DNA of 64,000 nucleotides from a virus (lineage: Duplodnaviria > Heunggongvirae > Uroviricota > Caudoviricetes): positions 5,703-69,702 of the IMG/VR virus record IMGVR_UViG_2579778842_000017. The stretch is one strand, 5' to 3'. The stretch's first letter is position 1, and every line of letters starts with the position of its first letter. A program made the position numbers and the translations under genes. A model generated the notes under the pieces. The model was given only the letters and a program-made list of their open reading frames with translations, was not told the DNA's origin and made no database searches. Below, piece by piece: positions 1,771 through 58,545 of this stretch.

Positions 1771-1785
1771 TTACCTATAAGGTAA
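1771..1785. promoter_or_regulatory. operator-like palindrome TTACC-TATAA-GGTAA (site 1 of 5)
   Basis: Exact TTACC-N5-GGTAA in the divergent intergenic region upstream of the Panacea operon; followed by ATGTCAC half-site. Confidence 0.4.
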
Positions 1786-1981
1786 TGTCACATTTCCTGC
1801 AAGTTTCATGCAATGTTGAAAAGTGAGCTATTCACTTTTCTATGACACCAAACACCAAAAATAGCACTTTTTGCTAAATCATTCGCCCAAGTTGTGGATG
1901 GTTTGTCGTTGACACGTTTTCACACACCACTCCACCAATAAAGTATCATCTGGTATCCTGCTCAAAACTAAGGAGGTTGGT

Positions 1982-2170
1982 GTGAAGAAAAAATTTGTAA
2001 ACGTTGCAAAGTGCGCAATTTTTATATTTTTTATGACCTTTTACGGATTTAGTGCCGGAGAAGGTTTCGATCGTGATGCCAATGCATTCAGTTTCTTTTG
2101 TCTGTCTATAGTGGTCATAATTGTATGGGTGGAATTAAAGCAAACATTGTTTCATGTGCTAGGGAAATAA
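1982..2170 (+). CDS. small hydrophobic protein (likely 2 TM segments)
   Basis: 62 aa; GTG start 5 nt after a perfect AAGGAGG ribosome-binding site. Confidence 0.45.
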   Translation: MKKKFVNVAKCAIFIFFMTFYGFSAGEGFDRDANAFSFFCLSIVVIIVWVELKQTLFHVLGK

Positions 2171-2187
2171 CCATCCATGGCATTTAG

Positions 2188-4053
2188 TCACTGCTGTGTT
2201 GCCTCAGTGGCAAGCAGCGGTCTGATGGCATTTGCAGCGTTACTTAATGCTCTTTCATAGGCTGGCGTTCCTGCTTTGGTGTTTGCCAGACGTAAGAGCG
2301 CATTCCTGGCCATAGGGCTTTCATAAACCCTCGACATAAGGCCAATCCCTGTTTCCCCAGCCAATAGCGCGCCTCCGGTTTTTAGGTTACCAATAACCCT
2401 TACCAAAGGCGCGAGTGTCATGCCAGTCTTCGTCACAACATTAGCCTCAGATGCTCTTTTGGTAGCATCGAGAATAGATAACATCCCCTCTATCTCTTTT
2501 CCGTTCTTCCCACCAAATACAGTTTTAAACACCTGACCATTTGCTTGTTTTTGCAGCTTGCCAAGCTCGGTCATCATTTTCTGAGGGCTGTCACCTACCT
2601 TGTCAGCTATTTTGCTGATATATGCCGCCCTTAGCATGTCTTTACCTTTTTGATCGAGTTTCCCGTACAATCGAGCTATATCTGACCCATATTGTCCATA
2701 CACAATGGTATTTACAGCCTCGGGAGTTAAATCTCCTTTGTTTAGAACGTTTTTAAGGCGCGTTTGAGTTGCATGTGTTGCCATTTTTGCATAATCAGCT
2801 TTTCCCGCTCTCCATGCTGAAGCATCTTTTGGGCTAAGTCCTTTCGCTATAGATTTACTAAGGCTATTGGTTAGCGAGTTATAGACCCTGTCGACCATTG
2901 TTTGCGACATTGATGGCAGAACTGTACGATCGCCTTTTACGTCAATGCGGAACTGAGTTCTCAGCTTATCAAGTAACTCAAAGGCATCATCTCCATTTGT
3001 TATCTCCTGAATGGCATTCTTATAATCATTAAGCGCAGAAATGGTCTGGGTGTCAGAAACACCTTTAAGTTTCCCAAGTTCGTTTACTGCTCCGTCGATA
3101 GCTCTTATGGCGCCACTTGTATCAACTGGCTTTCCAACCATTCTTCCTGACAGGCTGTTTAGTTTTGACTTGGCTAACGATTTTTCCCTTGCAACGCCTG
3201 ACTTTAGACTATCAACGACTACAGATGGATCGTAGTCGCCGTATTTTTCGGTGAAGCGATTAACAAGCTTGGTTCTGGCATCCTGCTGTGCGGCTCTCAT
3301 TGGTCCAGTACCAGCTATGACTCCTTCTGAGTAACCCTGCAGTTGATTGCCAAGTTTTGTTTTTGGAGGAACTACATCCGATGTCATAACTGGTACATCT
3401 GCCGCAGCGGCACGCTTGAGCAATTGCTGATCTGCTGGTGATATTTCGCCACGAACAGCAGTAATTCCACGCCCTATTCCCTTTGCTGCTGCGGAAAGAA
3501 CCCCCTGAGCGGCAAGGTTAACTCCTGCATTTTTAGCTGCATTTTGTGCGAAATCGCCTTTCTGATTTGCGGCCTCTGCCAGTGATCCAATAGCCATGCT
3601 TCCTGCCGTTCCAACTCCTGGAACTAAATACCCGCCAATTGTTTCTCCAGCTTGCGCATAAGGGTCTGTTGGTCGATCTACTGGACGATAGACATCGTCC
3701 AAAACCTTGGGGCCACCAAGCCCCTGGCTGATTGCATTAATCAGGCTTGCGCCACCCTGCAATACGTCAAATGGTATGTTTACCAGACCACGACCAGCCT
3801 GCTCTGCAATTTGCCCTGCACTTTGACCACCAGTGAGCCAATCGCCAGCTTGTTGCATCAATGATGGTTCTTCTTTCTGCTGCTGAGGCGGAGGGTATGC
3901 TGCATAAAACTGATCTCTTGCTTCAGCCCATTTGTCACCAGCCTTAGGGGCAACAACCTCATCAAAATATTGCGCTTGAGCCTGTGCTTTCTGTTCTTCA
4001 GTTAACGCCTGATACTGTGGAGAGGCGATAACATCTTTCCATGCTTTAGCCAT
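2188..4053 (-). CDS. ejection (injection) protein, P22 gp16-like
   Basis: 621 aa, last gene of a P22-order late operon (3-2-1-8-5-4-10-26-14-7-20-16); size matches gp16 (~609 aa). Confidence 0.6.
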   Translation of the reverse strand: MAKAWKDVIASPQYQALTEEQKAQAQAQYFDEVVAPKAGDKWAEARDQFYAAYPPPQQQKEEPSLMQQAGDWLTGGQSAGQIAEQAGRGLVNIPFDVLQGGASLINAISQGLGGPKVLDDVYRPVDRPTDPYAQAGETIGGYLVPGVGTAGSMAIGSLAEAANQKGDFAQNAAKNAGVNLAAQGVLSAAAKGIGRGITAVRGEISPADQQLLKRAAAADVPVMTSDVVPPKTKLGNQLQGYSEGVIAGTGPMRAAQQDARTKLVNRFTEKYGDYDPSVVVDSLKSGVAREKSLAKSKLNSLSGRMVGKPVDTSGAIRAIDGAVNELGKLKGVSDTQTISALNDYKNAIQEITNGDDAFELLDKLRTQFRIDVKGDRTVLPSMSQTMVDRVYNSLTNSLSKSIAKGLSPKDASAWRAGKADYAKMATHATQTRLKNVLNKGDLTPEAVNTIVYGQYGSDIARLYGKLDQKGKDMLRAAYISKIADKVGDSPQKMMTELGKLQKQANGQVFKTVFGGKNGKEIEGMLSILDATKRASEANVVTKTGMTLAPLVRVIGNLKTGGALLAGETGIGLMSRVYESPMARNALLRLANTKAGTPAYERALSNAANAIRPLLATEATQQ

Positions 4054-5447
4054 TAATCACCCCATAGTGAAGAAAAGTTACTGCTGGCTGCTGGCTGTGA
4101 TACCTGTGTAGGTTGAGATTGCTGCCGCTGAGATTTACCAACATTAACGTTATATTGTTGGTTGTAATTGTTGGTGTATTCCTGAATCTCACGAATCGAC
4201 TGCTGCATAGCCTCCGGGCTTGAATAGTCAACCTGCGGCATCCCCTGAAAATACATCTTCGCTTCTGCAACGGTGTTAATACCACTGGCACCCATATCCC
4301 TTGCTGCCGCCACACCCTGATTCTGCATTCTGCCCTGAATACGTTGTGCTGAGTTATATAACTGGCGCTGCTCTTTTCCTGTTAATCGGCTGCGAACATC
4401 AGCACCAATTGCTGGATTACCTGCACCGCCTGTCATTCCTGTCATGAAATCGAGAGCAGAAGCGTCTGCATTTGCGATCGCGTCGATATCCTTCTTCATG
4501 GCATAGTTTTGTGCTGATGCAGACGATGTTGCAGGCGCTGCGATTGAACTGGCAGGAACGCGAACCATATTCCCCTCGTTGTCGATGCCTTCGTAGAACG
4601 CATTAGCCCCAGCGCCGTGAAGCTTCCCACCTACCGTTACAGTTCTGCCATCTGATAACTGAACTGTACGCTTATCATTCCCAGCGATTCCTCTTGTTGA
4701 CGCTCGCTGCATTGCCAAATCCTGACCTCGTCGCGCAGTAGAAGCAGATAAGTCCTGACCGCGCATCGTGATGTTCTGACCTCGTGCTGTTAGCGCCTCT
4801 CCAGCCTGATTGCTGCGGATTGTCTCTGCCAGCCTGCCTCGGTCAATTTCACGACCAGCCATCTTGTCCTGAACATTGAAGTAATCAATCGGACCAAGAG
4901 CAGCCATTCCAAGGTGATCAACAAACTCTGTGAAACCTTGTGGATTTTGCTGATACATTTTCGCCACATCCAGAGGGTCTACTCCGGCACGAGTAAGCTC
5001 AGATGAGTTGTTCTGCAACCATGACATCATGGCTTCTGGAGATGAAGCTGCCAGTCTGGCACTTGCTGCCAGTGTGCCGACAGTGGAACGCTGGTCTTCA
5101 TCGACAAATTTCATGCCGTTTCTTACAGCGTCAAACTGCTCAGGATACTGTGATGCCAGTTTTCGCATTGCATCGCGGTCACCAGATGTATATGCATCAG
5201 CATAAGCCTGCTGAAACTCTTGCTGTCGCTTCTGCTGATCCATCTGCTTATACATATCCATGACAGATGAAATGCCCTGCAAAGCCTGCAAGCCAACGTT
5301 ATTACGTCCTGAACGCTCCATCTCGTTATTCTGTCGAATGTATGCAAGCGTGGCGTCTGCATCACTTGCTCTTGGAGCGTTGGAGTTCATGCCGCCTAAC
5401 CCGGCAAGAAGCGCGCCTGAATTACCAGCCTGTTGCCATGTAGCCAA
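4053..5447 (-). CDS. ejection protein, P22 gp20-like
   Basis: 464 aa, position and size match gp20 (~471 aa). Confidence 0.6.
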
Positions 5448-5459
5448 GAGACACCTCCA

Positions 5460-11770: not shown

Positions 11771-13975
11771 TTACTGCTGTGGTTGTTGCTGAGTTGATTT
11801 TTGCAGGATGCTGCTGATGTCCATGCGCTGCGCATGGCCTTGCGCCTGACTTTTCAGGACAAGCTCTGCATCAGCACGGGCATTATCTCCTTGCTGTTGC
11901 TGGAACTGTCCGAGCAGTTTCAGCGCCTCACGGATATCAGATTTTTGCTGGCTATCGGCAGATGCGAGGATTTTCACAACATTTGCCGCTGCAACCTGAG
12001 CATCCGTCTGTGCCTGGAATGCTTTAACCTGAATGGCTGCCTGCTCGTTCTGCGCTTTCTGCAATTCAGCCTGACCAGCAAGAAGCTGACCTTGCGCTGC
12101 AACCATAGCCGGATCTGGCTGACTGGCCTGTTGTTGTTTCGCCTGTTCAACCATCTGCTGTTCTTCAGGCGTTCTCGGCTTGATAACGCCAGACAGAAGC
12201 AACTGATTGCGGTTGTATTCTTTCAGGTCGTCCATCCCTTCGCCGTCCATATTGTCGAGAATCATCGACGATACAAGGTCGTGCTTCGGCGTTCCTGGTG
12301 GGATAAGTGCCAGCATGGAAAGTAACGACTTAACCGTTGCGTCACGGCGAGTAGCGAACGACTGACCGACATCGACAGTCACTTCATAGTTACCCTGCGA
12401 AAGGTCGTTAAGCGCGATAACCTGCCCTGTCTGACGGTCAACCACTTCACCAGTCATCAGCGCCACGTCATCGCTGCCGTCCTCATTAACGATACGCATC
12501 GGCGTATCGCTGCCATAGACTTCACGCGCCATAGAAAGCCACACAACGCCAGCGCGACGCATAGATTTAGCCATGTTGTCCATGTAGATATAGGACTGCG
12601 TGTCCATCCGGTTAAAAATGCTATCAACGGTATCAGTAGCGACGTTGCTCGGCATGTTCTCAAGCTGCGACGCACCTGTAATTTGCTGAATAGCCGTTCC
12701 GGTGTACTGCAATAGCCCGGCAAGAGCTGGAGGCATTTGTGTCGGAGGCGTATAACTGCTGACCTGAGCCTGCGCAGTAATATCTCCGTTTTTGTTTTTC
12801 AGACTGACCATCGGCAGGAACGCCGGGCGCTTTTTGTTGCGCTCCGCCCAATGAGTGGCGAGAGGACCAGGAATCATGTCAACATCAACTACAGGAATGC
12901 CATCACCGCCAGCCTGAGTAGCGTTATCTGCAATCATGGAAACCATCAGGTTCTCAAGACGCTGTGCATCCATCGCTTTTGCTGCGTGTCCTTCAATTCG
13001 CTCCTGATTATCAACAAATGAGCGACGCCCATATACCGGGATGAGAGGAATATGTTCGCCCGGAATACGCTTCGGTTCTTCCAGCCATTCAGCGCCAGAC
13101 AGAAGACCGCAATAAACGCGGCGCTTCTTCACCGTTCGCTCGCCAATCAGTTCGAATGCACCATCGGTCAGTTCGTCGACAATATCTTTTATTTGCTCTT
13201 CATCATAGATTGCCGTTTCTCCGCTAACAGGGTTGCGCCACGCCGTGATCTTCACCTTCTCTATGCGAACTTCGTAGTAGCGTCCAACATAGATGGCATC
13301 TGGCGTTGACCAGTCATATTGAGTGCCAGTGTTATCACGAGAAAGGCTTGCCGCGGTGGAATCAGGGTATTCAGCCTCGAACGCTTTGGGCGTCATGGAG
13401 AACATTTCCATAGCCCACATAGCATCAGAGCGGTCATATTGCTTGCTGTCCTGATCAAAGAAGACGCATGTCGCTGGGTCGTAAACAGGAAGAAGGCTGA
13501 TGCGTCGCTGCTCGTTACTCGGATCCATTTCATCTTCGTAATCGGCACACATGCGGAAACAACCGAATCCGCCCGTTACAGCATCATCAAATGCGTTATC
13601 ACACGCTTCGCCACCGGATGTTTCCTGATAGTCAGCGCGGAATTTGCCGTTCATCTTTTCGGCTAACGCTTCCGATGCCTTATCGTCCTTAGGCCTGAAT
13701 TTAACGCTGATGCGATTCTGTCGATACTCGCCAATGATGCGATCACATTCACGGGCAATCTTATTCAGTTCAAAGCGCGGGTAATGCTCAAACCTGCCTT
13801 CATCAAATGAGTAACCAGCGTTTGTGCTGCCTTCCCACTGTGCGCCGGACACCCGGACGAAACGTTGAGCCTCAATAATCTGCTCACGCATATCCTTCGT
13901 TGCTGACCAGGCATTATCAAAGTTGCACAGCACCTTGCGATGCCAGTCAGTCATCTTTCTATCATCAGCCATCAT
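11771..13975 (-). CDS. portal protein, P22 gp1-like
   Basis: Track ORF 11771..13987; start refined to ATG at 13975 overlapping the terminase stop; C-terminal Gln-rich barrel region resembles P22 portal. Confidence 0.85.
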   Translation of the reverse strand: MMADDRKMTDWHRKVLCNFDNAWSATKDMREQIIEAQRFVRVSGAQWEGSTNAGYSFDEGRFEHYPRFELNKIARECDRIIGEYRQNRISVKFRPKDDKASEALAEKMNGKFRADYQETSGGEACDNAFDDAVTGGFGCFRMCADYEDEMDPSNEQRRISLLPVYDPATCVFFDQDSKQYDRSDAMWAMEMFSMTPKAFEAEYPDSTAASLSRDNTGTQYDWSTPDAIYVGRYYEVRIEKVKITAWRNPVSGETAIYDEEQIKDIVDELTDGAFELIGERTVKKRRVYCGLLSGAEWLEEPKRIPGEHIPLIPVYGRRSFVDNQERIEGHAAKAMDAQRLENLMVSMIADNATQAGGDGIPVVDVDMIPGPLATHWAERNKKRPAFLPMVSLKNKNGDITAQAQVSSYTPPTQMPPALAGLLQYTGTAIQQITGASQLENMPSNVATDTVDSIFNRMDTQSYIYMDNMAKSMRRAGVVWLSMAREVYGSDTPMRIVNEDGSDDVALMTGEVVDRQTGQVIALNDLSQGNYEVTVDVGQSFATRRDATVKSLLSMLALIPPGTPKHDLVSSMILDNMDGEGMDDLKEYNRNQLLLSGVIKPRTPEEQQMVEQAKQQQASQPDPAMVAAQGQLLAGQAELQKAQNEQAAIQVKAFQAQTDAQVAAANVVKILASADSQQKSDIREALKLLGQFQQQQGDNARADAELVLKSQAQGHAQRMDISSILQKSTQQQPQQ

Positions 13976-15468
13976 CCAACTCCGCAAGGTATGTTGTAGC
14001 TTGAGTAATCAATCTCTTTAGGATCTTTGATGTCTCGCATCTGTATTGCAAAACGCCTCATCATGTAGCCATAGCGAACAGCAGAAAGGATGTCGTCATT
14101 TAGCTTGACGATCTTCCCGTTCTCATCGCGGTGATACAGACGAAACTCTTCAAAGAATGGCTCGCAGGTGTTAAATACCTTGAAACGACCGTCGAGCATC
14201 ATGTCGCGTATCTCTGCTATCCCGGGTTCGACCGCATTACCTCCATCAGGCCATGTTGCATGATCTGGCAACATGTCGAACCCAGCTTCGGCGTATTGTT
14301 CCTTGAGCTGAGCGCCGCCTCCCTTTTCGTGCTGATGCCCGTCATGAGGCCAAGCCGTAGGGGTGTTTTTGCTCCATGCTTTAACAGCACTCCATGCCTC
14401 TGTCGCCTTCTTCTGTTTGGCCTTCCAGACGCGAGAAAGATAAATCACGTCCTCGTCTTTATCCCACCAAAGCTGGATATGTGCCTGTGGGTGATCCCAT
14501 CCGAAGTCCATTGCATTGATGACGTAGAAGTGATCAGGACACTCGAACGGCTGACACTTAATCGTCTCTTCCGGTATCTGGAAGATTCGACCGCTACCCA
14601 TCGTAGGAATACCGCGAGCACGCGCCTCTCTCTCATGCTCGGGATAGGATGCGATGATTTGCTCTTTCTGTTCGTCTGTGTAGTGCTCAGCGTCATAGAT
14701 GGTCATGTTGACCACTTTCTGCGACTTGCTGGGATTCTTCAGGAACTTGGTAACAACGTCAGACATCCCCATCAGCGGGGTAAACGTCAGAATTGAGAAT
14801 TGCCCGTATTTGTTGGTACGGGTAAGACCTTCGCCATAAATGCTGTATGGTGGCTCTTCGTCAAACCACACGCCGTGGATTGTGTCACCCTGCCAGCGAG
14901 CGCGGCCTTGCGAGTATGGTTTGAAGTAGCAGATTGAAATGCCATCTTCAACGCCATCAGCCGTGTGATGCTTAACCAGAAGATGATCAACAAGGTTCGG
15001 AAAGAAAGGAGACTTCTTCCAGCTAATGATGTCTTCTTTAGGTATGGAACCGTAGCCTGGCTCATCATTCTCTTCGATACGACCACACAGGATGCGTTGA
15101 GTCGTTTTGGTTACAGTCTCGTTTGTCTCGCCGCCAATCCAGAAGACAACAGGCTCATAGAAACGCTTACCTTTCCACTCACCGCCATATTTACCATCAG
15201 CAGGATAGCCTTTTGTGCCCGGGTAACGCCCGGTAAGGTGAAACGCGACTTCAGCAGCACCAGTAAATGACTTACCAAGCTGGTTACCAGCCATAAAACA
15301 TCGCTCTGGATAGTCATGCCCGGCGTCGATGAACTCACGCTGTTTGCTGTATGGCGTAAATTCATATAGCAGGTGTGTGTTACGGTAGTTCTCTTCTTCT
15401 TCGAGTAGCTCGAGCAATTCGATTTGCTCTTCGTCGCTCAAGTTATCAAGAATCGCGTCCAGTTCCAC
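13972..15468 (-). CDS. terminase large subunit, P22 gp2-like
   Basis: 498 aa; size and position match P22 gp2. Confidence 0.9.
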
Positions 15469-42637: not shown

Positions 42638-42645
42638 GAGAGGAA

Positions 42646-43638: not shown

Positions 43639-43689
43639 CGCCTGTTATTAACCTGTGGGTCGTAACAGACCCACTAATGGAGAAAGAAG

Positions 43690-44127: not shown

Positions 44128-44128
44128 G

Positions 44129-44473: not shown

Positions 44474-44490
44474 GCCTCGCGAATCAGACA

Positions 44491-44510
44491 AGGGGCTTCG
44501 GCCCCTTTAT
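44491..44510 (+). terminator. intrinsic terminator after the capsid gene block
   Basis: AGGGGC-TTCG-GCCCCT hairpin followed by TTAT. Confidence 0.5.
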
Positions 44511-44517
44511 TGCAGGA

Positions 44518-47923: not shown

Positions 47924-48387
47924 TGATCGATGTTCAAATTATTCCCGCAACCGAAGAGCATCTTCAGATGATTTTGCCGGATGTTCGTCAGGCTGATATT
48001 GACGAACTGTATGCGGTATCACTGATGACTACCGAAGATGCGCTGCGTGTTGGTCTGCGTACTGCGACTATGGCCTGGTCAGGATTTGCGAACGGAGAAC
48101 TGGTAACCATGTTTGGCGTATCTCCGGCGTCAATGATCGGTGGCAATGGTACGCCCTGGCTGGTAGGAACCAGCCGTATTGAAAAATATCAGAAGACATT
48201 TCTGCGCCACTGCCGCCCTGTATTGCAGCAGATGCTGGCAGTTTATCCGCGCCTGGAAAACTACGTCGACGAGCGAAACCATGTTGCCAAAGCATGGCTG
48301 CACTGGCTTGGATTCAGGCTTGAAGAAGCCGCGCCTTATGGTGCTCTTGGTCTTAATTTCCACAGATTTCACATGGAGAGAAAATAA
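47923..48387 (+). CDS. internal virion protein (gp13-like position)
   Basis: 154 aa, synteny only. Confidence 0.4.
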   Translation: MIDVQIIPATEEHLQMILPDVRQADIDELYAVSLMTTEDALRVGLRTATMAWSGFANGELVTMFGVSPASMIGGNGTPWLVGTSRIEKYQKTFLRHCRPVLQQMLAVYPRLENYVDERNHVAKAWLHWLGFRLEEAAPYGALGLNFHRFHMERK

Positions 48388-48932
48388 TGTGCGATCCGGT
48401 TATTGCTGGTGGCGCAATGCTCGCCATGAGTGGCATTCAGGCATACACCCAGTACCAACAGGGAAAGTATGTCTCGAAGGTTGCAGAAGCGAACGCAGAT
48501 ATAGCCACAGCTCAGGCAAATGATGCAATAAACAGAGGTAACGCTGAAGCTGAGCAACGGCGCAGAGAGACCCGACAGCGGCTTGGTACACAGGCGGCGA
48601 CAATGGGGGCTACCGGCGCTGATTTATCTACAGGTAACGCGCTGGATATATTTGGCGACACTGCCCAGTTTGGCGCTCTTGATTCGCTGACGACGGTGAA
48701 TAACGCGCAACGCGAGGCTTACGGTTATCAGGTTCAGGCTGCCAACTATAAAGCAGAAGCCAGTTCAGCCCGTAAACAGGGGAATGTGGGAGCAGCAACA
48801 ACATTGCTCACCGCGCCTCTGAAGGCATACGGTGCGTACCAGATGTTTGGTGGGACGTGGAGTCCGTTTACTCAAAGCACTCCTGCGCCAATCGGGGCAG
48901 CAGCAGGAACCAGATTACCCGGAGGATTATAA
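48387..48932 (+). CDS. internal virion protein (gp14-like position)
   Basis: 181 aa, Ala/Gly/Gln-rich. Confidence 0.45.
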   Translation: MCDPVIAGGAMLAMSGIQAYTQYQQGKYVSKVAEANADIATAQANDAINRGNAEAEQRRRETRQRLGTQAATMGATGADLSTGNALDIFGDTAQFGALDSLTTVNNAQREAYGYQVQAANYKAEASSARKQGNVGAATTLLTAPLKAYGAYQMFGGTWSPFTQSTPAPIGAAAGTRLPGGL

Positions 48933-51445
48933 TGCCAGTCGTACCAACAGTATCCGGACGTCAGGTTGAGAGCCGTGGAGTTCAGTCAGCAGGCTTGCAG
49001 ACGTTTTCTCAGCCAGGTATTGGTGATGCTTTTGTTCGGGCAGGGACAGAGGCAATTGATGTTTTGGGGCAGGCAAAACAGCGTGCCAATATCGCTCTGG
49101 CTCAGGAGGCATCTCTTAACCTCAGTCAGATAAGCAGCGATCTGCTGAATAATCCTGAAACAGGATTGCTTAACCTGAAAGGGAAAAATGCTATTGGAAA
49201 AGGCCATGAGTATACGCAGCAGTTTGATGCTCAGGTCGAACAACTGGCTATGTCGCTGCCGGATGAACAGGCTCGTAATGCTTTCATGCAGCAGGCGCAG
49301 CAGCAGCGCATTCAGTTCACTACGCAGGCCGGGCGACACGAGATAGGGCAAATTAATGCCTACGAAGAAGGCCAGTTTCAGGCGACACTGCTGAACAATG
49401 GTAAAAATGCCGCAGCATTGTATGGCGACAACGCCGCATACGTATTGGCTAACAAGCAAACTTTCCAGCAAATTGAGGAGTACGGTGTTGCACATGGCTG
49501 GAGCAACGAGCAAATCCAGGCCAAGAAAATCGAGTTTAAAGAGAAGGTTGCTGATGCTGCATTGTCCCAGTGGTCGGCAAACAATGCGACCGCATTCATC
49601 CAAAGTAATGGCGAGTTAAGTGATACTGCTGCTGGAGCTCGCCGTGCTGTAGCAGATAGTGACTCTTCCGAGCGTGCCCGTGGCATACGCAACAATAACC
49701 CAGGAAATCTCGAATACAGCAAAACTAATCCGTGGGTAGGCCAGACCGGTGATGATGGTCGATTTGCTAAATTCGAAACACCTGAACACGGGATTCGTGC
49801 ATTAGGGCGGAACCTGATGTCGTATCAGAGGCAGGGTATTGATACTGTCAGCGAGATAATTAATCGCTGGGCACCGCCTGCTGATAAAAATGACACTATG
49901 TCGTATATCAAAGCAGTGTGCGAACAACTTGGCGTTTCTGCTGATGAGCCTCTCGATGCATCTAATCCTGATACCCTGAAGGCGCTTTGTGCAGCCATTA
50001 TCCATCATGAGAACGGTAGCCAGCCATACAGTGATCAGCAGTTAACTGCTGGTGTCAGTGCAGCACTTGGTTTATCAACAATTCCAACCAACACCAAACG
50101 CTATACCGGTAATGCAGCATTCGATGCGGCATCTCCTGAGGCGCAGGCAAGTTTTATGCGACAGGCGGATCAACTGCGTCGGCAGCAGCAGGCTGAATAT
50201 AAAACGATGATTGACAGCCAGGTTCGCGATGCGACAGCTGCGTATATGCGTGGCGTTGAATTTCCTAACCCACCTGGTGAGGCTGATTTTATTGCAGCTT
50301 ATGGAGTAAGAGAAGGAAACCTGCGATATACCGAGTTCAGAAATACGCAAATCGCCGGACAGTATATAGGCTCTTTCCGCAACATGCCGACAAGCAGCAT
50401 TACAGCATATGTTGAGCAATTACGCCCGGATACTGGTGAGACAGGGGAGGGTTATGCGGCACGAGCCGCTCTTTATGACAACGTTGTGTCGGCTGCAAGT
50501 CAGGTGATAAAGCAGCGACAGGCTGATCCTGTACAGTTCTCTCTTGCCGCCGGACAGGCAAAGCCTATCGACATGAGCAATAAGGATAACTTTGGACAGA
50601 GCGTTGCCTTGCGTGCTGCTCAGGTCAGTGACCTTGCTAAGTCATATGGCACTCCACTGACGTTCTTTTCCAAAGACGAGGCCAATCAGATCGGTGTTTT
50701 CTTTCGTGATGCTCCAGTTTCCCAACAGGCAGCATATCTCGACACCATCAGGCAGAGCACTGGTGGTGGGCAGGTGTATATGTCAGCACTACAGCAGATC
50801 AGTGCCAACGCTCCATCTGCTGCCGTTGCCGGGATACTGATGGATAAGCCTGGTGGTATTTTGGCAGAAAAAAACTGGTTTAATCCGGATGTTTCCGTGT
50901 CTCCTGAAACCGCTGCGCAGACAATTCTTGCTGGCGCGGCGGCTCGTAAAGGTACTGATGATGCGAAAGGTATTCCGATGCCTAAAGATGCTGATCTTCG
51001 CCTTGAGTTTTCTGACATGGTGAAGGATGCATTTGCTGGTGACGCTCATGGGGCATCAATGGCATACGAGATCGCAAAGGATTATTACGCTGGTGTGATG
51101 GCGAAAAAAGGCGTGGTATCAGGAGAAATTGACAATGATGTCTGGAAACAGGCTGTTAACGTAGCTACAGGTGGCGTGCATGACTATAACGGAATGGGGA
51201 ATGTCCTTTTGCCGTGGGGAATGTCTGCAGAGCAATTCGATAAGCAGGTTAATCAGGCTTGGAATGAACAAGTTGTCGGCTCCGGGATAAAAACACCGCC
51301 TGGTCAGTATGGTTTGCAAAGTTACGGCGATAGTCAGTACCTGGTGAAACTTGGTACTGGTTATCTGCTGAAAGATGATGGTTCTCCCGTTGTTCTTAAT
51401 CTGACACAGAAGCGTCAGAGATTCTCCGGAGATATTCCGCAATGA
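48932..51445 (+). CDS. internal core protein (gp15-like position)
   Basis: Start refined to MPVVPTVSG... (TAATG overlap); about 838 aa; segment RGIRNNNPGNLEYS...WVGQTGDDGRFAKF may be a cell-wall-active domain. Confidence 0.5.
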   Translation: MPVVPTVSGRQVESRGVQSAGLQTFSQPGIGDAFVRAGTEAIDVLGQAKQRANIALAQEASLNLSQISSDLLNNPETGLLNLKGKNAIGKGHEYTQQFDAQVEQLAMSLPDEQARNAFMQQAQQQRIQFTTQAGRHEIGQINAYEEGQFQATLLNNGKNAAALYGDNAAYVLANKQTFQQIEEYGVAHGWSNEQIQAKKIEFKEKVADAALSQWSANNATAFIQSNGELSDTAAGARRAVADSDSSERARGIRNNNPGNLEYSKTNPWVGQTGDDGRFAKFETPEHGIRALGRNLMSYQRQGIDTVSEIINRWAPPADKNDTMSYIKAVCEQLGVSADEPLDASNPDTLKALCAAIIHHENGSQPYSDQQLTAGVSAALGLSTIPTNTKRYTGNAAFDAASPEAQASFMRQADQLRRQQQAEYKTMIDSQVRDATAAYMRGVEFPNPPGEADFIAAYGVREGNLRYTEFRNTQIAGQYIGSFRNMPTSSITAYVEQLRPDTGETGEGYAARAALYDNVVSAASQVIKQRQADPVQFSLAAGQAKPIDMSNKDNFGQSVALRAAQVSDLAKSYGTPLTFFSKDEANQIGVFFRDAPVSQQAAYLDTIRQSTGGGQVYMSALQQISANAPSAAVAGILMDKPGGILAEKNWFNPDVSVSPETAAQTILAGAAARKGTDDAKGIPMPKDADLRLEFSDMVKDAFAGDAHGASMAYEIAKDYYAGVMAKKGVVSGEIDNDVWKQAVNVATGGVHDYNGMGNVLLPWGMSAEQFDKQVNQAWNEQVVGSGIKTPPGQYGLQSYGDSQYLVKLGTGYLLKDDGSPVVLNLTQKRQRFSGDIPQ

Positions 51446-53244
51446 GTTACTTTGGCCTTAATCCAGTAAACCAGAATCAGCAGCTTGACGAAGCAGCATC
51501 AAATCCAGCTGGCTTTAACAGCGATGTTGGTTTTTTCGACAATGCTGTAGGAGCGGCATTGTCTGGTTTGTACTCCGGGCTGGTGGCAAAGCCAGATCAG
51601 TTGCTATGGGCAGGGATGGATAAAATCGTATCCCCGATTGCTCAGTTTGTTAACGAAAACACCTCGCTCAATGACACTTCAGTTTCATACATTGCTGAGC
51701 AGAGAAAACTAGCAGAGCAGCAGGTTAAGCGGCTGACGCCTGATGCCGCGACAACCGGAACCGCCGGGCAGGTCCTTTATGGGTTGTTCGATATGGGCGG
51801 GCAGGCTGTTGTCGGTACAACGCTCGGTGGTCCGGTCGGAGGTGCTGCGGCGGTAACTTCGCTACAGGGTTTTTCTGAGTTTGAACGGCTGACAGCACAG
51901 GGTGTTGATTTCAGGACGGCGCAGGAAGCGGGATTAGTGCAGGGTATTACTGCTGGTGCCGGAACACTGATCCCTATGAGCCTCGGGTTACGTGCTGGTG
52001 GTGCGCTGGCGGAAGGTGTGGCGGCTCAGCTTGCGCGGACGGGTGAAAGTTCAGTGCGACGCGCCGCAGCAACAGCAGTACGTGCAACGCCAGATATTGC
52101 CTATGCCGCAGGTACAAATATTGCGTTCGGTATGGCACAGCGTGGGCTTACTGCAAAAACGCTTCGTGATGGTGGCTATAGCGAAATGGCTAACCAGTAT
52201 GATGTGTTGGATCGACAGGCAATTGCTATTGATGCTGTTCTTGGGGTGGCGTTTGGTGGTGTCGGCAGATTTATTAACTCTCGCGGCGAGTCTACAAGCG
52301 CACCAAATTTTTCACCAGTTGATATTGATGCTGCACTGGCGGCGAATGCCGCTCATCATGCTGAAATTGATATTGCTCCCGGCGTTCCGATCAACGTGCT
52401 TTCGCGTAATTCGCACATTCAGGCTCTGCGAAAAGCCATGTCTGATGTTAGCCAGGGGAGACCTGTAGACGTTGCCAGCATTGTTGAGTCTGCATCTTTC
52501 AGTGAAATTCCTGGGCGCAAGAGTCTGCTGTCTCAGGCAGTTAATGAGGCTCTGTCATCTGTAGATGATGGAGTAACTGCGCGCGCTATAGAAAATCGGT
52601 TGCTTGAAGAACAGGCCGCGCAGCTTTTGTCGCGTGGCGATAGACAGGTTTACCAGTCTGAAATCGCTAATAGCCAACGAATTATTGAAAATCTCACTGA
52701 ACAGCGCGCACAAATTCTTGCAGAAGAGCCAACCGGTAGCGGTAAGGCTTTATCTCGTGCTCGATCAGATAAACAGGCCAGACTTCGCGATATTGACCAA
52801 CGAATCCGGCAGGCACAAGAACGCCTGGAATTTTCTCGTAACGCGTTGGCGCCGCACGAGCCTGGAGGTCAGTTTTTTGAAGCTCGAGCAGAACTGGCAC
52901 GACGACAGCAGGCAGAAAGTGAACTTAATGCTCAGGCTGTTTCATTCTATAAAACAGCAGAGGTCAGGACGCCAGACGAAGTAGCTCCTTTTGAGCCCGG
53001 TAAGATATTGCAACAGACAGAACAAAAAATGATGGCAGATCCGGCAGGAGATATTGATCTGCGTATAGCTGAAGACTCGCTGCTTGAATCTCCGGACATG
53101 ATAATCACCGTGCTGGATGATGATGGTAATCCACAATCGCGCAGTGCGCGTGAAGTACTGGATGAAGCGAACAGGGAAAGTGAGCAGGCAATACAGGATT
53201 CCAGCCTGTTTGATGTCGCTGTGGCGTGTTTCTTGAGAGGTTAA
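51442..53244 (+). CDS. internal core protein (gp16-like, part 1)
   Basis: 600 aa, synteny only. Confidence 0.5.
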   Translation: MSYFGLNPVNQNQQLDEAASNPAGFNSDVGFFDNAVGAALSGLYSGLVAKPDQLLWAGMDKIVSPIAQFVNENTSLNDTSVSYIAEQRKLAEQQVKRLTPDAATTGTAGQVLYGLFDMGGQAVVGTTLGGPVGGAAAVTSLQGFSEFERLTAQGVDFRTAQEAGLVQGITAGAGTLIPMSLGLRAGGALAEGVAAQLARTGESSVRRAAATAVRATPDIAYAAGTNIAFGMAQRGLTAKTLRDGGYSEMANQYDVLDRQAIAIDAVLGVAFGGVGRFINSRGESTSAPNFSPVDIDAALAANAAHHAEIDIAPGVPINVLSRNSHIQALRKAMSDVSQGRPVDVASIVESASFSEIPGRKSLLSQAVNEALSSVDDGVTARAIENRLLEEQAAQLLSRGDRQVYQSEIANSQRIIENLTEQRAQILAEEPTGSGKALSRARSDKQARLRDIDQRIRQAQERLEFSRNALAPHEPGGQFFEARAELARRQQAESELNAQAVSFYKTAEVRTPDEVAPFEPGKILQQTEQKMMADPAGDIDLRIAEDSLLESPDMIITVLDDDGNPQSRSAREVLDEANRESEQAIQDSSLFDVAVACFLRG

Positions 53245-53249
53245 ATTAA

Positions 53250-55724
53250 ATGAGACAGGAATGTATACAAGCGGTCCAGCAGGCGGCGCAGCGCACGTTA
53301 ACGGCGCGAGAAATACAGAACATTGAAGACCGCATTTATCGAAATATGCGCTCCATTGCTCGTGATGACCCGATGTCGTGGAGACAACTTTCCGAATCAG
53401 AGCGGCTATATCGTGCAGCACAATTGGCATCTGAAGAATTACAGCGAGAAGCGGCATTAAAGAAACGTCGTGTGGCCCTCACTATAGCCGCACGTCAGAG
53501 ATTGGATAAATTTATCAATAGCTATCAAGGGGCTGATGGGAAACTTGGCGCTCTTAACCGTACTATTGCTTTTAATGCAGACGGTAAATCGAATTTCCTC
53601 TCTGTTGAATCCAGAACAAAAGCCACCCGTGATTATGCATTGAGTCAATTGCAGGAGGCATTCGAAGCAGTTGATCCTCGCTTTTTTGGTCTGTTTGAAG
53701 ATGAAGCGGGCGTACGTGACCTGGTATATGAAATGCGGGGGCAAAATACTGGCAATGCTAAAGCAAGAAAAGGTGCTAAGGCGTGGAGAGAAGTGACAGA
53801 GCTACTGCGCCGCCGGTTTAATGATGCTGGTGGGGACATTGGCTATCTCGAAAACTGGGGGATCCCTCAACATCATTCTATGGAAAAGGTTGGGGCGGTA
53901 TCAAAGGATAAGTGGGTTAGCGATGTTATAGGTAAGCTGGATCGCAAATATTATATCCGAGCCGATGGACAACTGATGAACGATGCCGAGTTGTCTGCAT
54001 TTCTTGGAGAGGCTTATAACACGATCGCTACTGGTGGGCTGAATAAGCTTACTGATACCGGAATGCGAATTTCCGGCGCACGTGCTAACCGTGGTAATGC
54101 ATCACGACAGATACATTTCAAAGATGCAGATTCCTATCTGCAATATCAGCAACTTTATGGCGATCGCTCTCTATGGGAAATCATGGTCGGTCACCTGGAA
54201 GGTATCAGTAAAGATATTGCACTGGTGGAAACATATGGTCCAAACCCCGATCATGTTTTCCGCTCCCTTCTTGATCAGGTTAAGGCAGAAACGGCAACAG
54301 CTAACCCGAGTAAAACCGGTAAAGTCGAGCGGCTGGCGAACAAAACAGAGAACCTGTACAACTTTATTTCCGGAAAGACACAGCCTGTAGCGAATCCGCA
54401 CATCGCGCGATGGTCTGACAATATCCGCAACTGGCTGGTTGCCAGCAGACTCGGATCCGCGTTGCTGTCATCGTTCTCTGATCTTGGAACCATGTATCTG
54501 TCTGCGAAGGTTACCAACCTTCCAATGAACCAGTTATTCCGCAACCAGCTTGAAGCTATGGACCCAACGAACCGTACAGAACTTGCGCGGGCGCGCCGCG
54601 CTGGTCTGGCGATGGAATCTCTACTTGGCAGCGTTAACCGCTGGGCGATGGATAATATGGGGCCGTCAGTGTCTCGTTGGGCGGCAACGGCGGTAATGCG
54701 TGCCAGTGGGCTTACAGCATGGTCAGATGCGCACAAGCGCGCCTATGGCGTAACCATGATGGGAAGCCTGGGAGAAGTAGTGTCACGGACACCAGACCTT
54801 CGTAGCCTCGATGACTATGATTTTCGTATCCTGAAAAGCAAAGGGATTACTGACACAGACTGGAGCGTATGGAAGCTGGCGCAACAGGAGGACTGGGGGA
54901 ACGGTAATAATACGATGCTGACACCGGAAAGCATTATGCGTATCCCTGATTCAGCAGTTAAACATCTTGGTGAGCCTGAACGTGTGAAATTTGAGGCAAT
55001 GCGTAAACTGCTCGGTGCCGTAACTGAAGAAGTTGATATGGCTGTTATTACACCGGGCGCACGTGAACGGATGTTCGTAGGGTCTGGTCTTCAGCGTGGA
55101 ACATGGAAAGGTGAATTAACGAGAAGTGTTTTCCTGTTTAAATCGTTCCCTATCTCGGTAGTTATGCGTCACTGGCATAGAGCTATGGGGATGCCGTCTG
55201 CTGGTGGGCGTGCGGCATATATAGCAACGTTTTTAGCAAGCACAACCATGCTTGGTGCTCTTTCCATGCAGATTACTGATCTTATTAATGGGAGAAATCC
55301 AAAAGAAATGACCGGTGACAACATGGTTAAATTCTGGATAAATGCATTTTTAAAAGGTGGTGGGGCAGGGTTGTATGGTGATTTTCTTTTCTCTGACCAC
55401 ACCAGGTACGGGAGCGGCGCACTAGCGTCGATGCTTGGCCCGGTAGCTGGTCTGGTTGATGACGTAGTGAAGATTGCTCAGGGCATACCGTTAAATGCTG
55501 TGGAAGGGAAGAATGAGCAGACTGGTGGTGATCTGGTTAAGCTTGGGAAAGGTTTGATGCCTGGTGCGAATCTCTGGTACTTGAAGGCGGCTCTCGATCA
55601 CATGATCTTTAATCAGATGCAGGAGTATTTTTCACCAGGCTATTTGCGTAAAATGGAGCAACGTTCGAAGAAAGAGTTTAACCAGACATACTGGTGGCGA
55701 CCTCAGGATGTCACTCCGCAATAA
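53250..55724 (+). CDS. internal core protein (gp16-like, part 2)
   Basis: 824 aa, synteny only. Confidence 0.5.
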   Translation: MRQECIQAVQQAAQRTLTAREIQNIEDRIYRNMRSIARDDPMSWRQLSESERLYRAAQLASEELQREAALKKRRVALTIAARQRLDKFINSYQGADGKLGALNRTIAFNADGKSNFLSVESRTKATRDYALSQLQEAFEAVDPRFFGLFEDEAGVRDLVYEMRGQNTGNAKARKGAKAWREVTELLRRRFNDAGGDIGYLENWGIPQHHSMEKVGAVSKDKWVSDVIGKLDRKYYIRADGQLMNDAELSAFLGEAYNTIATGGLNKLTDTGMRISGARANRGNASRQIHFKDADSYLQYQQLYGDRSLWEIMVGHLEGISKDIALVETYGPNPDHVFRSLLDQVKAETATANPSKTGKVERLANKTENLYNFISGKTQPVANPHIARWSDNIRNWLVASRLGSALLSSFSDLGTMYLSAKVTNLPMNQLFRNQLEAMDPTNRTELARARRAGLAMESLLGSVNRWAMDNMGPSVSRWAATAVMRASGLTAWSDAHKRAYGVTMMGSLGEVVSRTPDLRSLDDYDFRILKSKGITDTDWSVWKLAQQEDWGNGNNTMLTPESIMRIPDSAVKHLGEPERVKFEAMRKLLGAVTEEVDMAVITPGARERMFVGSGLQRGTWKGELTRSVFLFKSFPISVVMRHWHRAMGMPSAGGRAAYIATFLASTTMLGALSMQITDLINGRNPKEMTGDNMVKFWINAFLKGGGAGLYGDFLFSDHTRYGSGALASMLGPVAGLVDDVVKIAQGIPLNAVEGKNEQTGGDLVKLGKGLMPGANLWYLKAALDHMIFNQMQEYFSPGYLRKMEQRSKKEFNQTYWWRPQDVTPQ

Positions 55725-55733
55725 GGAACAACA

Positions 55734-56441: not shown

Positions 56442-56882
56442 TTATTCTTCTTCATCATTAAAAAGCGGATTGTTATTTCCATCTGATGAAAGGAAAGGTA
56501 TGTGTTCTCTTGAAAATCCAACAATGACAATTTCATTATCATTTTTTGCATAATGAATGCATTCATTAGAATGCATTCCGCCAGGGTTGAAATTTAAGTT
56601 AATGGTATAATTCTTAAATGTGTTTGGATACCATGTTGGCCCACAATGATAATGCCAATAATTCTCTTGCTCATAATTGTCTGAGCCGGGAATTTTATCA
56701 TGGTTATCATCAACCCACGAGGGCTTGTTTTTTCCAACAAGCGCCCTTCCATTGGCAACATCCTCTAAAAAACTTTGTATGATTTTTATTTCATCATCAG
56801 TAAGGAAAGGTCCGTCTACAGCGAAAGGGGTGTTGCTTTCCCCATGTAGAAAACTATTAGATATTCTAATGTTAAACTTCAA
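56442..56882 (-). CDS. hypothetical protein, AT-rich cassette gene 2
   Basis: About 146 aa from a TTG 6 nt after an AGGAG site (track ORF extends to 57023 in overlap with gene 1); no in-frame ATG near the 5' end. Confidence 0.4.
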   Translation of the reverse strand: MKFNIRISNSFLHGESNTPFAVDGPFLTDDEIKIIQSFLEDVANGRALVGKNKPSWVDDNHDKIPGSDNYEQENYWHYHCGPTWYPNTFKNYTINLNFNPGGMHSNECIHYAKNDNEIVIVGFSREHIPFLSSDGNNNPLFNDEEE

Positions 56883-56902
56883 GGAAAACTCCTGATGTGC
56901 TT

Positions 56903-57070
56903 CTATTTGGAGCGAAATGCCGCCTTGAAGTCGCTGAAAGATGTTCCTGTCTGGTAAACCATATCCTTGTCGCGCTCTTTGCTTGCGCGGCCAAGCATAA
57001 CTTTTCCAATGACATCCCAGCATTGCTTGGCTTGTTCATTGTGCTGAGTACGATTTTTCAACGCTGTCAT
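56903..57070 (-). CDS. 55-aa basic protein, candidate regulator, cassette gene 1
   Basis: ORF below the track cutoff, translated by hand (MTALKNRTQHNEQAKQCWDVIGKVMLGRASKERDKDMVYQTGTSFSDFKAAFRSK); AAGGAGG ribosome-binding site; operator-like site at its promoter. Confidence 0.4.
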   Translation of the reverse strand: MTALKNRTQHNEQAKQCWDVIGKVMLGRASKERDKDMVYQTGTSFSDFKAAFRSK

Positions 57071-57082: not shown

Positions 57083-57097
57083 TTACCTTTAAGGTAA
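57083..57097. promoter_or_regulatory. operator-like palindrome TTACC-TTTAA-GGTAA (site 3 of 5) at a promoter
   Basis: Minus strand reads TTGCAG-17 nt-TACTAT then TTACCTTTAAGGTAA and AAGGAGG before the 55-aa ORF. Confidence 0.5.
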
Positions 57098-57170
57098 TAG
57101 TACGCTATTCACCCACAGTCTGCAATCTGTACAGAATTATTTAAAGGCACATCCCTGTGCCGCCGTTCTG

Positions 57171-57881
57171 TCAGAAGAACCCTGCCTTGTCGTTGATGTA
57201 CTCCGCGTGCGTCTGGATATCACGCAGGCATTTGCTCACACCGACGATGTAGCAGAACATGGTGGTCAGCTCCGCCGCCGCGCCAGATACGTCGTGCCCG
57301 TCGTCCTGCAACTGGTTCAGCAGATTCATCAGCAGTGAGTTCTCCGTCAGGCCGAGAACACCAGACGGCGAGTGAATCAGGCTGCGGTAGCCGGGCTTCA
57401 GTGGGGCACTGTAGGTTTTGTTCTCTATCTTCATTGCCTGTATTACTGCTGACGCCGTGGCGTTGGCTACCTGGTCGGCAACCATCTTTATGCGTTCTTC
57501 CTGCGGGAGCGAGTCTTTAATGTAACTTCCGGTGCGGCGGATCTGAGGAAGAACCTCACCTGTAACCCATTTACGAAAGCGGTAGGGGATAGTGCCTGGT
57601 GTCACCGCATCGCGGCAGCGGAGGATCAGTGTGTAGAGGCCTGACTCGGAGATGATGTTGAGCTCTTTTACTCGGCTATCAAAAATTGCACGATGTTCAT
57701 GCCCTATGTTGAACATAGACCTTTCATCATCATCCAGTTTTTCAAGTGATTGGGTGACGTTTTGGATACGCAGCGCACTACAAACGTCTTGGGCTACAAA
57801 CCATGGTTGGCCATCGATAATGATGGAACGGATAGGGTTAACAGATTCAAATTTGAAGATGGCAGTTTGAGCATTAGCCAT
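57171..57881 (-). CDS. Bro-N domain antirepressor-like protein
   Basis: Start refined to MANAQTAIFKF...; N-terminal IIIDGQPWFVAQDVCSALRI is a Bro-N signature; C-terminal domain paralogous to the 85-aa protein upstream. Confidence 0.65.
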   Translation of the reverse strand: MANAQTAIFKFESVNPIRSIIIDGQPWFVAQDVCSALRIQNVTQSLEKLDDDERSMFNIGHEHRAIFDSRVKELNIISESGLYTLILRCRDAVTPGTIPYRFRKWVTGEVLPQIRRTGSYIKDSLPQEERIKMVADQVANATASAVIQAMKIENKTYSAPLKPGYRSLIHSPSGVLGLTENSLLMNLLNQLQDDGHDVSGAAAELTTMFCYIVGVSKCLRDIQTHAEYINDKAGFF

Positions 57882-58036
57882 GGTGGTTATCTCCACTTAG
57901 TGATTTTAATCACCACCGCAACGCCAATTACTGGTGGTGAACTGGACAAGGTTGGCGTACCGGCCTAAGTGGTACCGGCGTCCTTTCGGACCCCTGCCCA
58001 GCCCACCATAATTCGGATATGGCTGTGCTTAACGCA

Positions 58037-58059
58037 TAAAAAAACCACGTCTGGCGTGG
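58037..58059 (-). terminator. terminator-like hairpin with U-run
   Basis: Minus strand: CCACGCCAGACGTGG followed by TTTTTTT. Confidence 0.4.
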
Positions 58060-58150
58060 TATGCGCCACTTAGTAACTCGGGACGCCAATCCCGGCACTG
58101 GATTTTTCCAGTGCCCGATTACTATGGCACAAGAGGAGTGCGATGTAAAT

Positions 58151-58165
58151 TTACCGCAAAGGTAA
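58151..58165. promoter_or_regulatory. operator-like palindrome TTACC-GCAAA-GGTAA (site 4 of 5)
   Basis: Nested inside inverted repeat GGAGTGC...GCACTCC (58135..58178); minus-strand context TTGCAA-18 nt-TATATT then TTACC. Confidence 0.4.
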
Positions 58166-58196
58166 ATATAAGCACTCCACTTGGTAATTGCAAACC

Positions 58197-58454
58197 TTAT
58201 CTGGTTTGTTTTCGTAATTGTTCGGCACAATAGTCGAGATGTGTTTGCAGATCCCGCATAGACATCTGTGAGCTGGTGACGTAGTTAATCAGTGCAGTCA
58301 GTTCGGCAAGTGGGCCATCGACATTAAATCCATCCTTATCGAGCTCCCGGAGTAATTTCATCAAGTGCGATCCCTCCACCAGTGATCTAACGCCTCCCGG
58401 CGTGTGAATCCTTTCGGTAAATCCGTCTTCCAGTGGATAGTGATACTGCTGCAT
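58197..58454 (-). CDS. small antirepressor-like protein (paralog of the Bro-N protein C-terminus)
   Basis: 85 aa from ATG after GGAGAA site (track ORF 58197..58472 starts at TTG); about 45% identity by eye to residues about 150-236 of the Bro-N protein. Confidence 0.5.
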   Translation of the reverse strand: MQQYHYPLEDGFTERIHTPGGVRSLVEGSHLMKLLRELDKDGFNVDGPLAELTALINYVTSSQMSMRDLQTHLDYCAEQLRKQTR

Positions 58455-58475
58455 CTTATCTTCTCCATGCAATAA

Positions 58476-58491
58476 CTGTATAAATATACAG
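58476..58491. promoter_or_regulatory. LexA (SOS) box
   Basis: CTGTATAAATATACAG, a near-consensus CTGT-N8-ACAG palindrome about 22 nt upstream of the 85-aa gene start. Confidence 0.7.
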
Positions 58492-58530
58492 TATCAAATA
58501 ATTTATTTGCTATCCAGCACGTTTTGCGAA

Positions 58531-58545
58531 TCACCTGAAAGGTAA
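58531..58545. promoter_or_regulatory. operator-like palindrome TCACC-TGAAA-GGTAA (site 5 of 5, one mismatch)
   Basis: About 105 nt upstream of the tail fibre gene; flanks resemble site 2. Confidence 0.35.

Follow-up and report, generated by a model that had tools for sequence, protein, structure and literature searches.

A 15-bp palindrome, TTACC-N5-GGTAA, recurs in a 64,000-nucleotide stretch of DNA from a tailed virus of the class Caudoviricetes (IMG/VR record IMGVR_UViG_2579778842_000017, positions 5,703 to 69,702; the whole stretch is referred to here as the window). With a probability that we put at about 0.85, this palindrome is the operator of Rep, the lysogeny repressor of podophages of the epsilon15/phiV10/SPC32H type (genus Uetakevirus). 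The motif as such is already known, as the annotated operator of a studied repressor–antirepressor switch. The original prediction, made from the window alone, was that one unidentified regulator links accessory and structural units through sites with a repressor–operator geometry: the single regulator and the geometry hold up, but the word unidentified does not, since the epsilon15 annotation names the lysogeny repressor.

The identification starts from the epsilon15 GenBank record (NC_004775), which carries seven protein_bind features described as “repressor; lysogeny” (at 12, 2931, 19895, 32479, 32554, 32616, and 35906), and all seven coincide with matches to TTACC-N5-GGTAA. The epsilon15 sites at 12, 2932, and 19896 are orthologues of the window sites at the small terminase gene (terS), the portal operon, and the ant/tail-fibre region, respectively. 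Exact copies were also counted in the genomes of related phages and compared to chance expectation: 8 vs 0.038 expected in phiV10, 11 vs 0.036 in epsilon15, 10 vs 0.036 in SPC32H, 9 vs 0.031 in Klebsiella phage BUCT711, and 9 vs 0.039 in Enterobacter phage Tyrion. The motif is thus ~200-fold enriched in Rep-encoding phage genomes, where it clusters around rep, and when up to one mismatch is allowed, phiV10, epsilon15, and SPC32H each carry 14–18 copies. In every Rep-encoding relative examined, rep has two to three copies on either side, located at the divergent immunity promoters. The remaining copies precede terS, the portal operon, the ant/tail-fibre region, the lysis genes, and a middle operon. 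The same operator pattern is seen in the intact prophage of Escherichia coli UMNK88.

These sites are conserved in position and in their arms. The terS, portal, and ant/tail-fibre sites could be aligned across phiV10, epsilon15, SPC32H, and Tyrion, with BUCT711 copies at the portal and tail-fibre positions. At the portal site, the spacer reads TGAAA in the window and TAAAA in epsilon15, with invariant arms in surrounding DNA that is ~75% identical. Window sites hence combine sequence identity to the annotated epsilon15 repressor sites with orthologous positions at which the arms are kept and the spacer and flanks are free to vary, both as expected of a Uetakevirus Rep operator. Clusters flanking rep within the same element are a third such feature, which is present in all relatives and absent from the window. 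Among 47 exact sites from related phages, the central base is A or T in 98% of cases, and the extended consensus is a-TTACC-wwWww-GGTAA-t.

The repressor itself is consistent with a shared operator. Rep proteins are 43% identical overall, yet an NLVNRW stretch in their N-terminal domain is invariant; this stretch may be the Rep recognition helix, and its invariance fits one common operator. Rep combines a helix-turn-helix domain at its N terminus with a tetramerisation domain at its C terminus, and phiV10 Rep matches the SPC32H repressor (5D50_A, E = 4e-42). As outlined in a secondary summary, SPC32H Rep is a tetramer on palindromic operators that is disassembled by the antirepressor Ant, and the pairs of DNA-binding domains in the tetramer are contributed by different dimers (PMC9638917). 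We infer from the GenBank annotation and from the genomic distribution of the motif that Rep physically binds this exact palindrome. A full-text literature search for TTACC/GGTAA returned nothing relevant, and the ZX5 paper gives no definition of the operator. A role of the palindrome as a hairpin or terminator was rejected: the stem is 5 bp long, there is no T-run, and the arms are kept as DNA whatever the strand or the orientation of the spacer.

In the window, exact copies start at 1771, 36478, 39641, 57083, and 58151, when 0.01 copies would be expected by chance from dinucleotide shuffles and 0.064 from base composition. The recurrence is therefore real and non-random, and the composition-based value agrees with the ~0.06 copies first put forward. 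Copies with one mismatch are found at 15272, 36496, and 58531, the last two of them in non-coding DNA. Four exact sites and the one at 58531 had been correctly listed from the start, but the exact copy at 36478 and its degenerate neighbor at 36496 had been overlooked. The copy at 15272 is probably a chance match, as it lies within a P22-like terminase open reading frame (ORF; 13972–15468) and has a central G, unlike 98% of the sites in relatives. The copy at 36496 is also G-centred, yet sites occupy the same position in phiV10, epsilon15, and Tyrion. Apart from 15272, the sites considered are:

1771–1785: exact palindrome, 158 bp upstream of the Panacea gene of the P22-like module
36478–36492: exact predicted Rep operator that opens a tandem pair, with the same sequence as phiV10 site 87 and orthologous to the annotated epsilon15 site 12
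36496–36510: predicted second operator of the pair, degenerate (TTACCACGGTGGTTA), offset by 18 bp and overlapping the terS Shine-Dalgarno sequence GGTGG
39641–39655: predicted Rep operator (exact), upstream of the gp3-like/portal operon
57083–57097: exact predicted Rep operator, immediately preceded by TTGCAG-N17-TACTAT and immediately followed by the AGGAGG/ATG of a gene for 55 amino acids (aa)
58151–58165: exact predicted Rep operator that spans the start site predicted for the promoter of the isrK-like/C4-like leader and the Bro-N gene
58531–58545: predicted Rep operator with a single mismatch (TCACC), located where ant and the tail fibre gene diverge

The distribution of these sites follows the composite structure of the window. 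Judging from similarity and gene order, the late half of a phiV10/epsilon15-type (Uetakevirus) prophage occupies 36.05 to 62.84 kb: this region is 97–99% identical to Escherichia phage phiV10 over 36053–55727 and 85–87% identical over 57170–59131 and 60807–62452, with its parts in the order p55-like regulator, terminase, portal, capsid, tail, ant/Bro-N region, tail fibre, and lysis genes. Its right end is marked by a single Uetakevirus att core, ATTGAGTGGGAATGATT (62823–62839, + strand; core sequence from PMC9782041), which is the only copy in the window. The first 34 kb represent a P22-like (Lederbergvirus) prophage with structural genes on the minus strand and, on the plus strand, a leftward early operon that includes Rad52/Erf, SSB, anti-RecBCD, and Ead/Ea22 genes. 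This half encodes a 216-aa C2-type S24 repressor (27210–27860). P22 C2-type operators (TTAAG-N4-CTTAA) flank the repressor gene at 27120–27215 and 27900–27990, so that the P22-like half has its own complete immunity region. The resident C2 repressor was accordingly rejected as binder of the palindrome, as its immunity region carries TTAAG-type rather than TTACC-type palindromes.

The two halves meet inside an ead/Ea22 gene at ~34.08 kb (about 34076, ORF 33836–34651). The stretch from ead/Ea22 to DUF551 is where Uetakevirus homology sets in; the match of the window to E. coli UMNK88 covers 34076–37500 (99.4%), and that to P22-like phages 26.5–35.5 kb. The rep, cro-like, and int genes of the Uetakevirus are missing from the window, their early region having been replaced by the P22-like prophage, which accounts for the lack of a rep cluster. 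Among complete E. coli genomes, none was found to have this ead junction; the window itself belongs to a 277.6-kb contig of assembly GCA_000696835.1 that was seen in three samples. UMNK88 carries an intact Uetakevirus at guaA that includes rep and a complete set of operators, and ~178 kb away a P22-like prophage with the Panacea region and an ead gene in inverted orientation. The arrangement of the window would thus probably have arisen by ead × ead recombination inverting an interval of ~180 kb, with rep left at the reciprocal junction, although a deletion or an assembly error across the ead repeat is a possible alternative. A prophage half separated from its repressor gene by a large rearrangement would represent a natural test of trans-repression.

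At the left end of the Uetakevirus half, the operator at 36478 lies between the terminator of the p55-like gene (36441–36458) and the small terminase gene (ATG at 36513). The 18-bp tandem is also present in phiV10 (87/105), epsilon15 (12/30), and Tyrion (67/85). Pairs of this kind, spaced by 17–18 bp, occur both at terS and at the rightward immunity operators, and each might accommodate a single Rep tetramer. Orthologues of the 39641 operator are found in phiV10 (3252), epsilon15 (2932, an annotated repressor site), and SPC32H (3175). Downstream of the window site come GGTAATAAT and then CATATGTGGTTA, the latter 41 nt past the operator end (56 nt from start to start). Between terL and the portal operon, an accessory region carries a tRNA-Arg(tct) gene (39242–39318, − strand), with a tRNA-Arg at the same position in SPC32H; the 83-aa and 87-aa ORFs listed at this locus are probably spurious.

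The late-operon sites share further elements. The sequence GGTAAT(A/T)(A/T)T follows the operators of terS, the portal operon, and the tail fibre. Another conserved element, CATATGTGGTTT, forms one half of an AAACCA-N4-TGGTTT palindrome and is found 29–47 nt past the ends of late-operon operators; a −10-like hexamer (TAATAA, TAATAG, or TATAAT) comes 5–6 nt after it. The element and its candidate partner were located as follows:

39697–39708, 58575–58586, and 60847–60862: copies of CATATGTGGTTT in the window
phiV10 3308, 20921, 24739, and 35116: copies of CATATGTGGTTT
epsilon15 2988, 19940, 24751, and 35953: copies of CATATGTGGTTT
36053–36391, + strand: p55/gp49-like “transcriptional regulator” (phrog_536), 100% identical to phiV10 p55

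The element and its −10-like hexamer may constitute an activator-dependent late promoter. The p55/gp49-like protein, whose gene is the last early gene before terS, is a candidate for the late-gene activator acting there, as opposed to a binder of the palindrome.

The sites at 57083, 58151, and 58531 fall in the accessory region between 56.4 and 58.65 kb, in which antirepressor genes, leader RNAs, and promoter-like sequences occur next to the operators:

58544–58572, − strand: promoter-like TAGACA-N17-GATATT, ending inside the 58531 operator (on its first T)
58476–58491: perfect LexA box, CTGTATAAATATACAG, 22 nt upstream of the ant ATG
58197–58454, − strand: ant, small antirepressor inactivating Rep (ATG at 58454; PDB 5D50 chain E “Anti-repressor protein”, E = 7e-47)
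58165–58193, − strand: promoter-like TTGCAA-N17-TATATT (9/12), ending on the first T of the 58151 palindrome
58038–58114, − strand: isrK-like small RNA (RF01394; Rfam gathering-level match, 66 bits)
57930–58013, − strand: C4 antisense RNA (RF01695; 66 bits, gathering score 45)
57171–57896, − strand: Bro-N antirepressor gene (Pfam Bro-N, with a C-terminal SPC32H-Ant-type domain)
57097–57125, − strand: promoter-like TTGCAG-N17-TACTAT (8/12, below the scanner threshold and read from the sequence)
56903–57070, − strand: 55-aa gene
56882 (TTG start) to 56442, − strand: 146-aa gene

The one-mismatch operator at 58531 is identical in phiV10 (20877) and TL-2011b, while epsilon15 and SPC32H have an exact copy there, which in epsilon15 is the annotated repressor site. 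The window ant is 88% identical to that of SPC32H (tblastn), and a plausible −10 hexamer (TATATT) lies within its LexA box. The phiV10 counterpart of the 58151 site (20497) has the same arms around an inverted 5-nt centre; at phiV10 20484–20524, the operator centres a 41-bp near-perfect palindrome, ggagtgcttatat-TTACCTTTGCGGTAA-atataagcactcc. Within the isrK-like small RNA, 58044–58060 forms a terminator-like hairpin, and the C4 antisense RNA lies upstream of the antirepressor gene on the same strand, as in a P1-type immI unit. The C-terminal part of the Bro-N protein matches phrog_450 (residues 158–239), and a tblastn search with Ant returned 57186–57419; together with the small Ant, the element consequently encodes two antirepressors with the same Rep-binding module. 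The cassette downstream of 57083 (56442–57070) matches the function-unassigned families phrog_8607 and phrog_5954 and had no Pfam or NCBIfam match. In TL-2011b, the same promoter and an operator with the same arms (2554, TTACC-CTTGA-GGTAA) precede another cassette, composed of a YafO-family toxin gene and a 59-aa gene. The break in homology between the window and TL-2011b falls at the 57083 operator, which on this alignment looks like a hot spot of cassette exchange.

With regard to promoters, minus-strand −35/−10-like pairs had been proposed next to the palindromes. Such pairs are found at 57083, 58151, and 58531; the palindrome at 1771 does not follow a pair and instead overlaps the spacer and a weak −10. 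The leftward early promoter predicted in phiV10 (TTGACA-N17-AATTAT|TACC) ends on the first T of its operator, which is the geometry seen at 57083 and 58151 in the window, and in the rightward early promoter predicted in epsilon15 (TTGATT-N17-AATAAT), the operator lies within the spacer.

Taken together, these features suggest how the switch may operate. Rep would control more than the two early promoters next to rep, with operators before nearly every unit, i.e., terS, the portal operon, the divergent ant/tail-fibre region, the lysis genes, a middle operon, and the accessory cassettes. By occupying operators that overlap the −10 or the start site, Rep would most likely block RNA polymerase and keep these units silent in the lysogen. 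Upon DNA damage, LexA release would allow the small antirepressor Ant to be made, which would then disassemble Rep and clear all operators at once, so that all units become derepressed together. A second antirepressor, combining Bro-N and Ant domains, would be available behind the isrK/C4 RNA leader, and the cro-like protein, by analogy with lambda, probably uses the same operators.

Several observations weigh against assigning the window sites to Rep. No Rep homologue was detected in the window by tblastn with epsilon15 gp38 and phiV10 p40 (best E = 1.7); repression in cis is thus precluded, and the operators would depend on a Rep encoded elsewhere in the genome. The site at 1771 sits in a phage type without Rep. 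Across the five genomes compared, the terS, portal, and tail-fibre sites have no conserved or convincing −35 on the strand of the gene, which makes simple promoter occlusion a tentative reading there; Rep could act at these sites by occlusion of a weak promoter, by looping, or as a roadblock. Promoter-like matches in operator regions are not more common than in shuffled sequences, which makes each promoter call weak when taken alone. Finally, the p55/gp49-like gene co-occurs with the motif in all genomes, and co-occurrence alone does not separate this protein from Rep.

The alternative that survives best concerns the site at 1771 only, which would have arisen by chance or would serve an unrelated regulator of the P22-like phage or its cassette, with no link to Rep. 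We consider this explanation nearly as likely to be right as wrong, with the balance slightly against it. The locus comprises the following genes:

1164–1613, − strand: Panacea-domain antitoxin-like gene (PF13274, E = 2e-24; match to the SocA antitoxin model NF047745, below cut-off)
736–1158, − strand: 140-aa partner of the Panacea gene

The cassette (736–1613) includes a match to phrog_8366. A ClpP-like protease ORF (178 aa; 147–683, + strand) adjoins the Panacea/SocA-like pair, and the Panacea/ClpP-like locus occupies the region of the P22-like genome where P22 itself carries sieA. Although the palindrome had been described as extending across both modules, this rests on 1771 alone, and the other exact copies lie in the Uetakevirus half. 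It is the sole exact copy in 37 kb of non-Uetakevirus DNA, and the Emek, E212, EC.P3, and phiv205-1 segments likewise carry a single copy. The non-coding block of 390 bp around it is 95% identical in these four phages; conservation extends over the entire block and so reveals no footprint specific to the palindrome, and no divergent homologues of this upstream region were found, all being ≥95% identical. The promoter context is weak, with a TTGCAG hexamer 11 nt from the palindrome, and the resident C2-type repressor uses TTAAG-N4-CTTAA. On the other hand, only 0.038 copies are expected in the non-Uetakevirus part, a figure that would by a rough estimate be about ten times lower for its intergenic DNA, and the spacer is A/T-rich with a central T, fitting the Rep consensus. 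Co-residence must also be frequent: of 5426 complete E. coli genomes, 537 (~10%) carry a phiV10-type rep, so both prophage types must often share a cell. The Panacea region was counted in 82 of the same 5426 genomes (totals only).

Conversely, 1771 could be a functional Rep-type operator through which a co-resident Uetakevirus prophage switches the Panacea cassette of an unrelated phage, with the accessory cassettes of the Uetakevirus wired to Rep as well; we regard this combined proposal as tentative and rather unlikely. If true, a Panacea toxin–antitoxin or defence cassette would be switched off, or switched on at induction, by an unrelated prophage, and the Uetakevirus cassettes (the one at 57083, and YafO in TL-2011b) would be under the immunity repressor instead of constitutive. 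Lysogenic-conversion genes are usually constitutive, with their own promoters.

Among alternatives that address the motif as a whole, the p55/gp49-like protein (36053–36391) could bind the palindrome and activate late units. Its gene has the position of a late activator and, as noted above, accompanies the motif in all genomes, and many sites precede late operons. However, the densest clusters (3 + 3) lie to either side of rep, where the divergent immunity promoters are, a pattern that marks an immunity repressor and its Cro partner; moreover, the epsilon15 annotators gave the sites to the repressor, and the CATATGTGGTTT element downstream of late-operon operators is a better candidate for an activator site. 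We therefore consider this alternative improbable.

It is even less probable that a regulator encoded by an accessory cassette, i.e., the 55-aa or Panacea protein, binds the palindrome and coordinates these loci. The 55-aa gene begins 13 nt past the 57083 palindrome, a geometry in which autoregulation would be natural, and toxin–antitoxin-like cassettes are often autoregulated via palindromes. The 55-aa protein had been put forward as the candidate regulator, a suggestion we could not sustain: its gene, like the 146-aa and Panacea genes, has no homologue in phiV10, epsilon15, or SPC32H despite their 14–18 motif copies each, which led us to reject all three products as the cognate regulator. 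Moreover, no DNA-binding family was detected for the 55-aa and Panacea proteins, and TL-2011b retains the operator before an unrelated cassette.

A host factor such as the antitoxin MqsA, whose palindrome is AACCT-N3-AGGTT (PMC4894380), is equally improbable: the sites at 1771, 39641, and 57083 read tACCT-N3-AGGTa and the one at 58531 cACCT-N3-AGGTa, differing only at the outermost base of each half, but this base is T (C at 58531) and not A in all window sites, ACCT/AGGT is missing from 36478 (ACCA...CGGT), 58151 (ACCG...AGGT), and most epsilon15 and SPC32H sites (e.g., TTACCAAAACGGTAA), and neither the ~200-fold enrichment in Rep-encoding phages nor the clustering at rep is expected of a host-factor site.

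Assignment of the palindrome to Rep leaves as novel the predicted wiring of accessory cassettes to Rep, the lone site in the P22-like module, and the separation of operators from their repressor gene. The operator map would mean that this phage family puts every transcription unit, including accessory cassettes and the isrK/C4-antirepressor unit, under one repressor, and the lone site of the P22-like phage may point to regulatory cross-talk between unrelated prophages that are often carried by the same host.

The closest known system is epsilon15 itself, with whose predicted repressor-binding sites the work of Kropinski et al. in 2007 is reportedly associated. The window shares with it the sequence of the sites, their orthologous positions (terS, portal, and gp19/tail fibre), and their dispersed distribution, but lacks rep and the rep-flanking clusters, and has additional sites at 57083 (cassette), 58151 (isrK/C4-Bro-N unit), and 1771 (P22-like module). 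The SPC32H Rep–Ant lytic switch is said to have been described by Kim and Ryu in 2013 and by Kim et al. in 2016 (PDB 5D4Z and 5D50). As in this switch, the window Ant matches a chain of the repressor–antirepressor entry (5D50_E) and a LexA box precedes ant, and SPC32H has the same motif map; unlike SPC32H, the window has no Rep, and it carries a second antirepressor, the Bro-N/Ant fusion, that SPC32H lacks.

Similar layouts are found in less related phages. In phage P1, the C1 repressor has many dispersed operators, and the immI operon (c4 antisense RNA, icd, and ant) is under a C1 operator. The window resembles P1 in that the operators of an immunity repressor are scattered, with one at the promoter of a C4 RNA–antirepressor unit (the C4 family being detected in the window); the repressor families are, however, unrelated, and the window operator is symmetric whereas that of P1 C1 is asymmetric and 17 bp long. 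The “stoperators” bound by gp71 of mycobacteriophage L5 are asymmetric and orientation-dependent, and block elongation. As with these, many repressor sites lie within or between late operons and away from the immunity region, while the window sites differ in being palindromic and adjoining promoter-like sequences. Lastly, the window is reminiscent of P22 immI, where Mnt and Arc operators control ant, in having an antirepressor region next to a tail fibre or tailspike gene and small palindromic operators. The operator sequence of the window differs from O-mnt and O-arc of P22, no Mnt or Arc homologue is involved, and the controlling protein would instead be the main immunity repressor.

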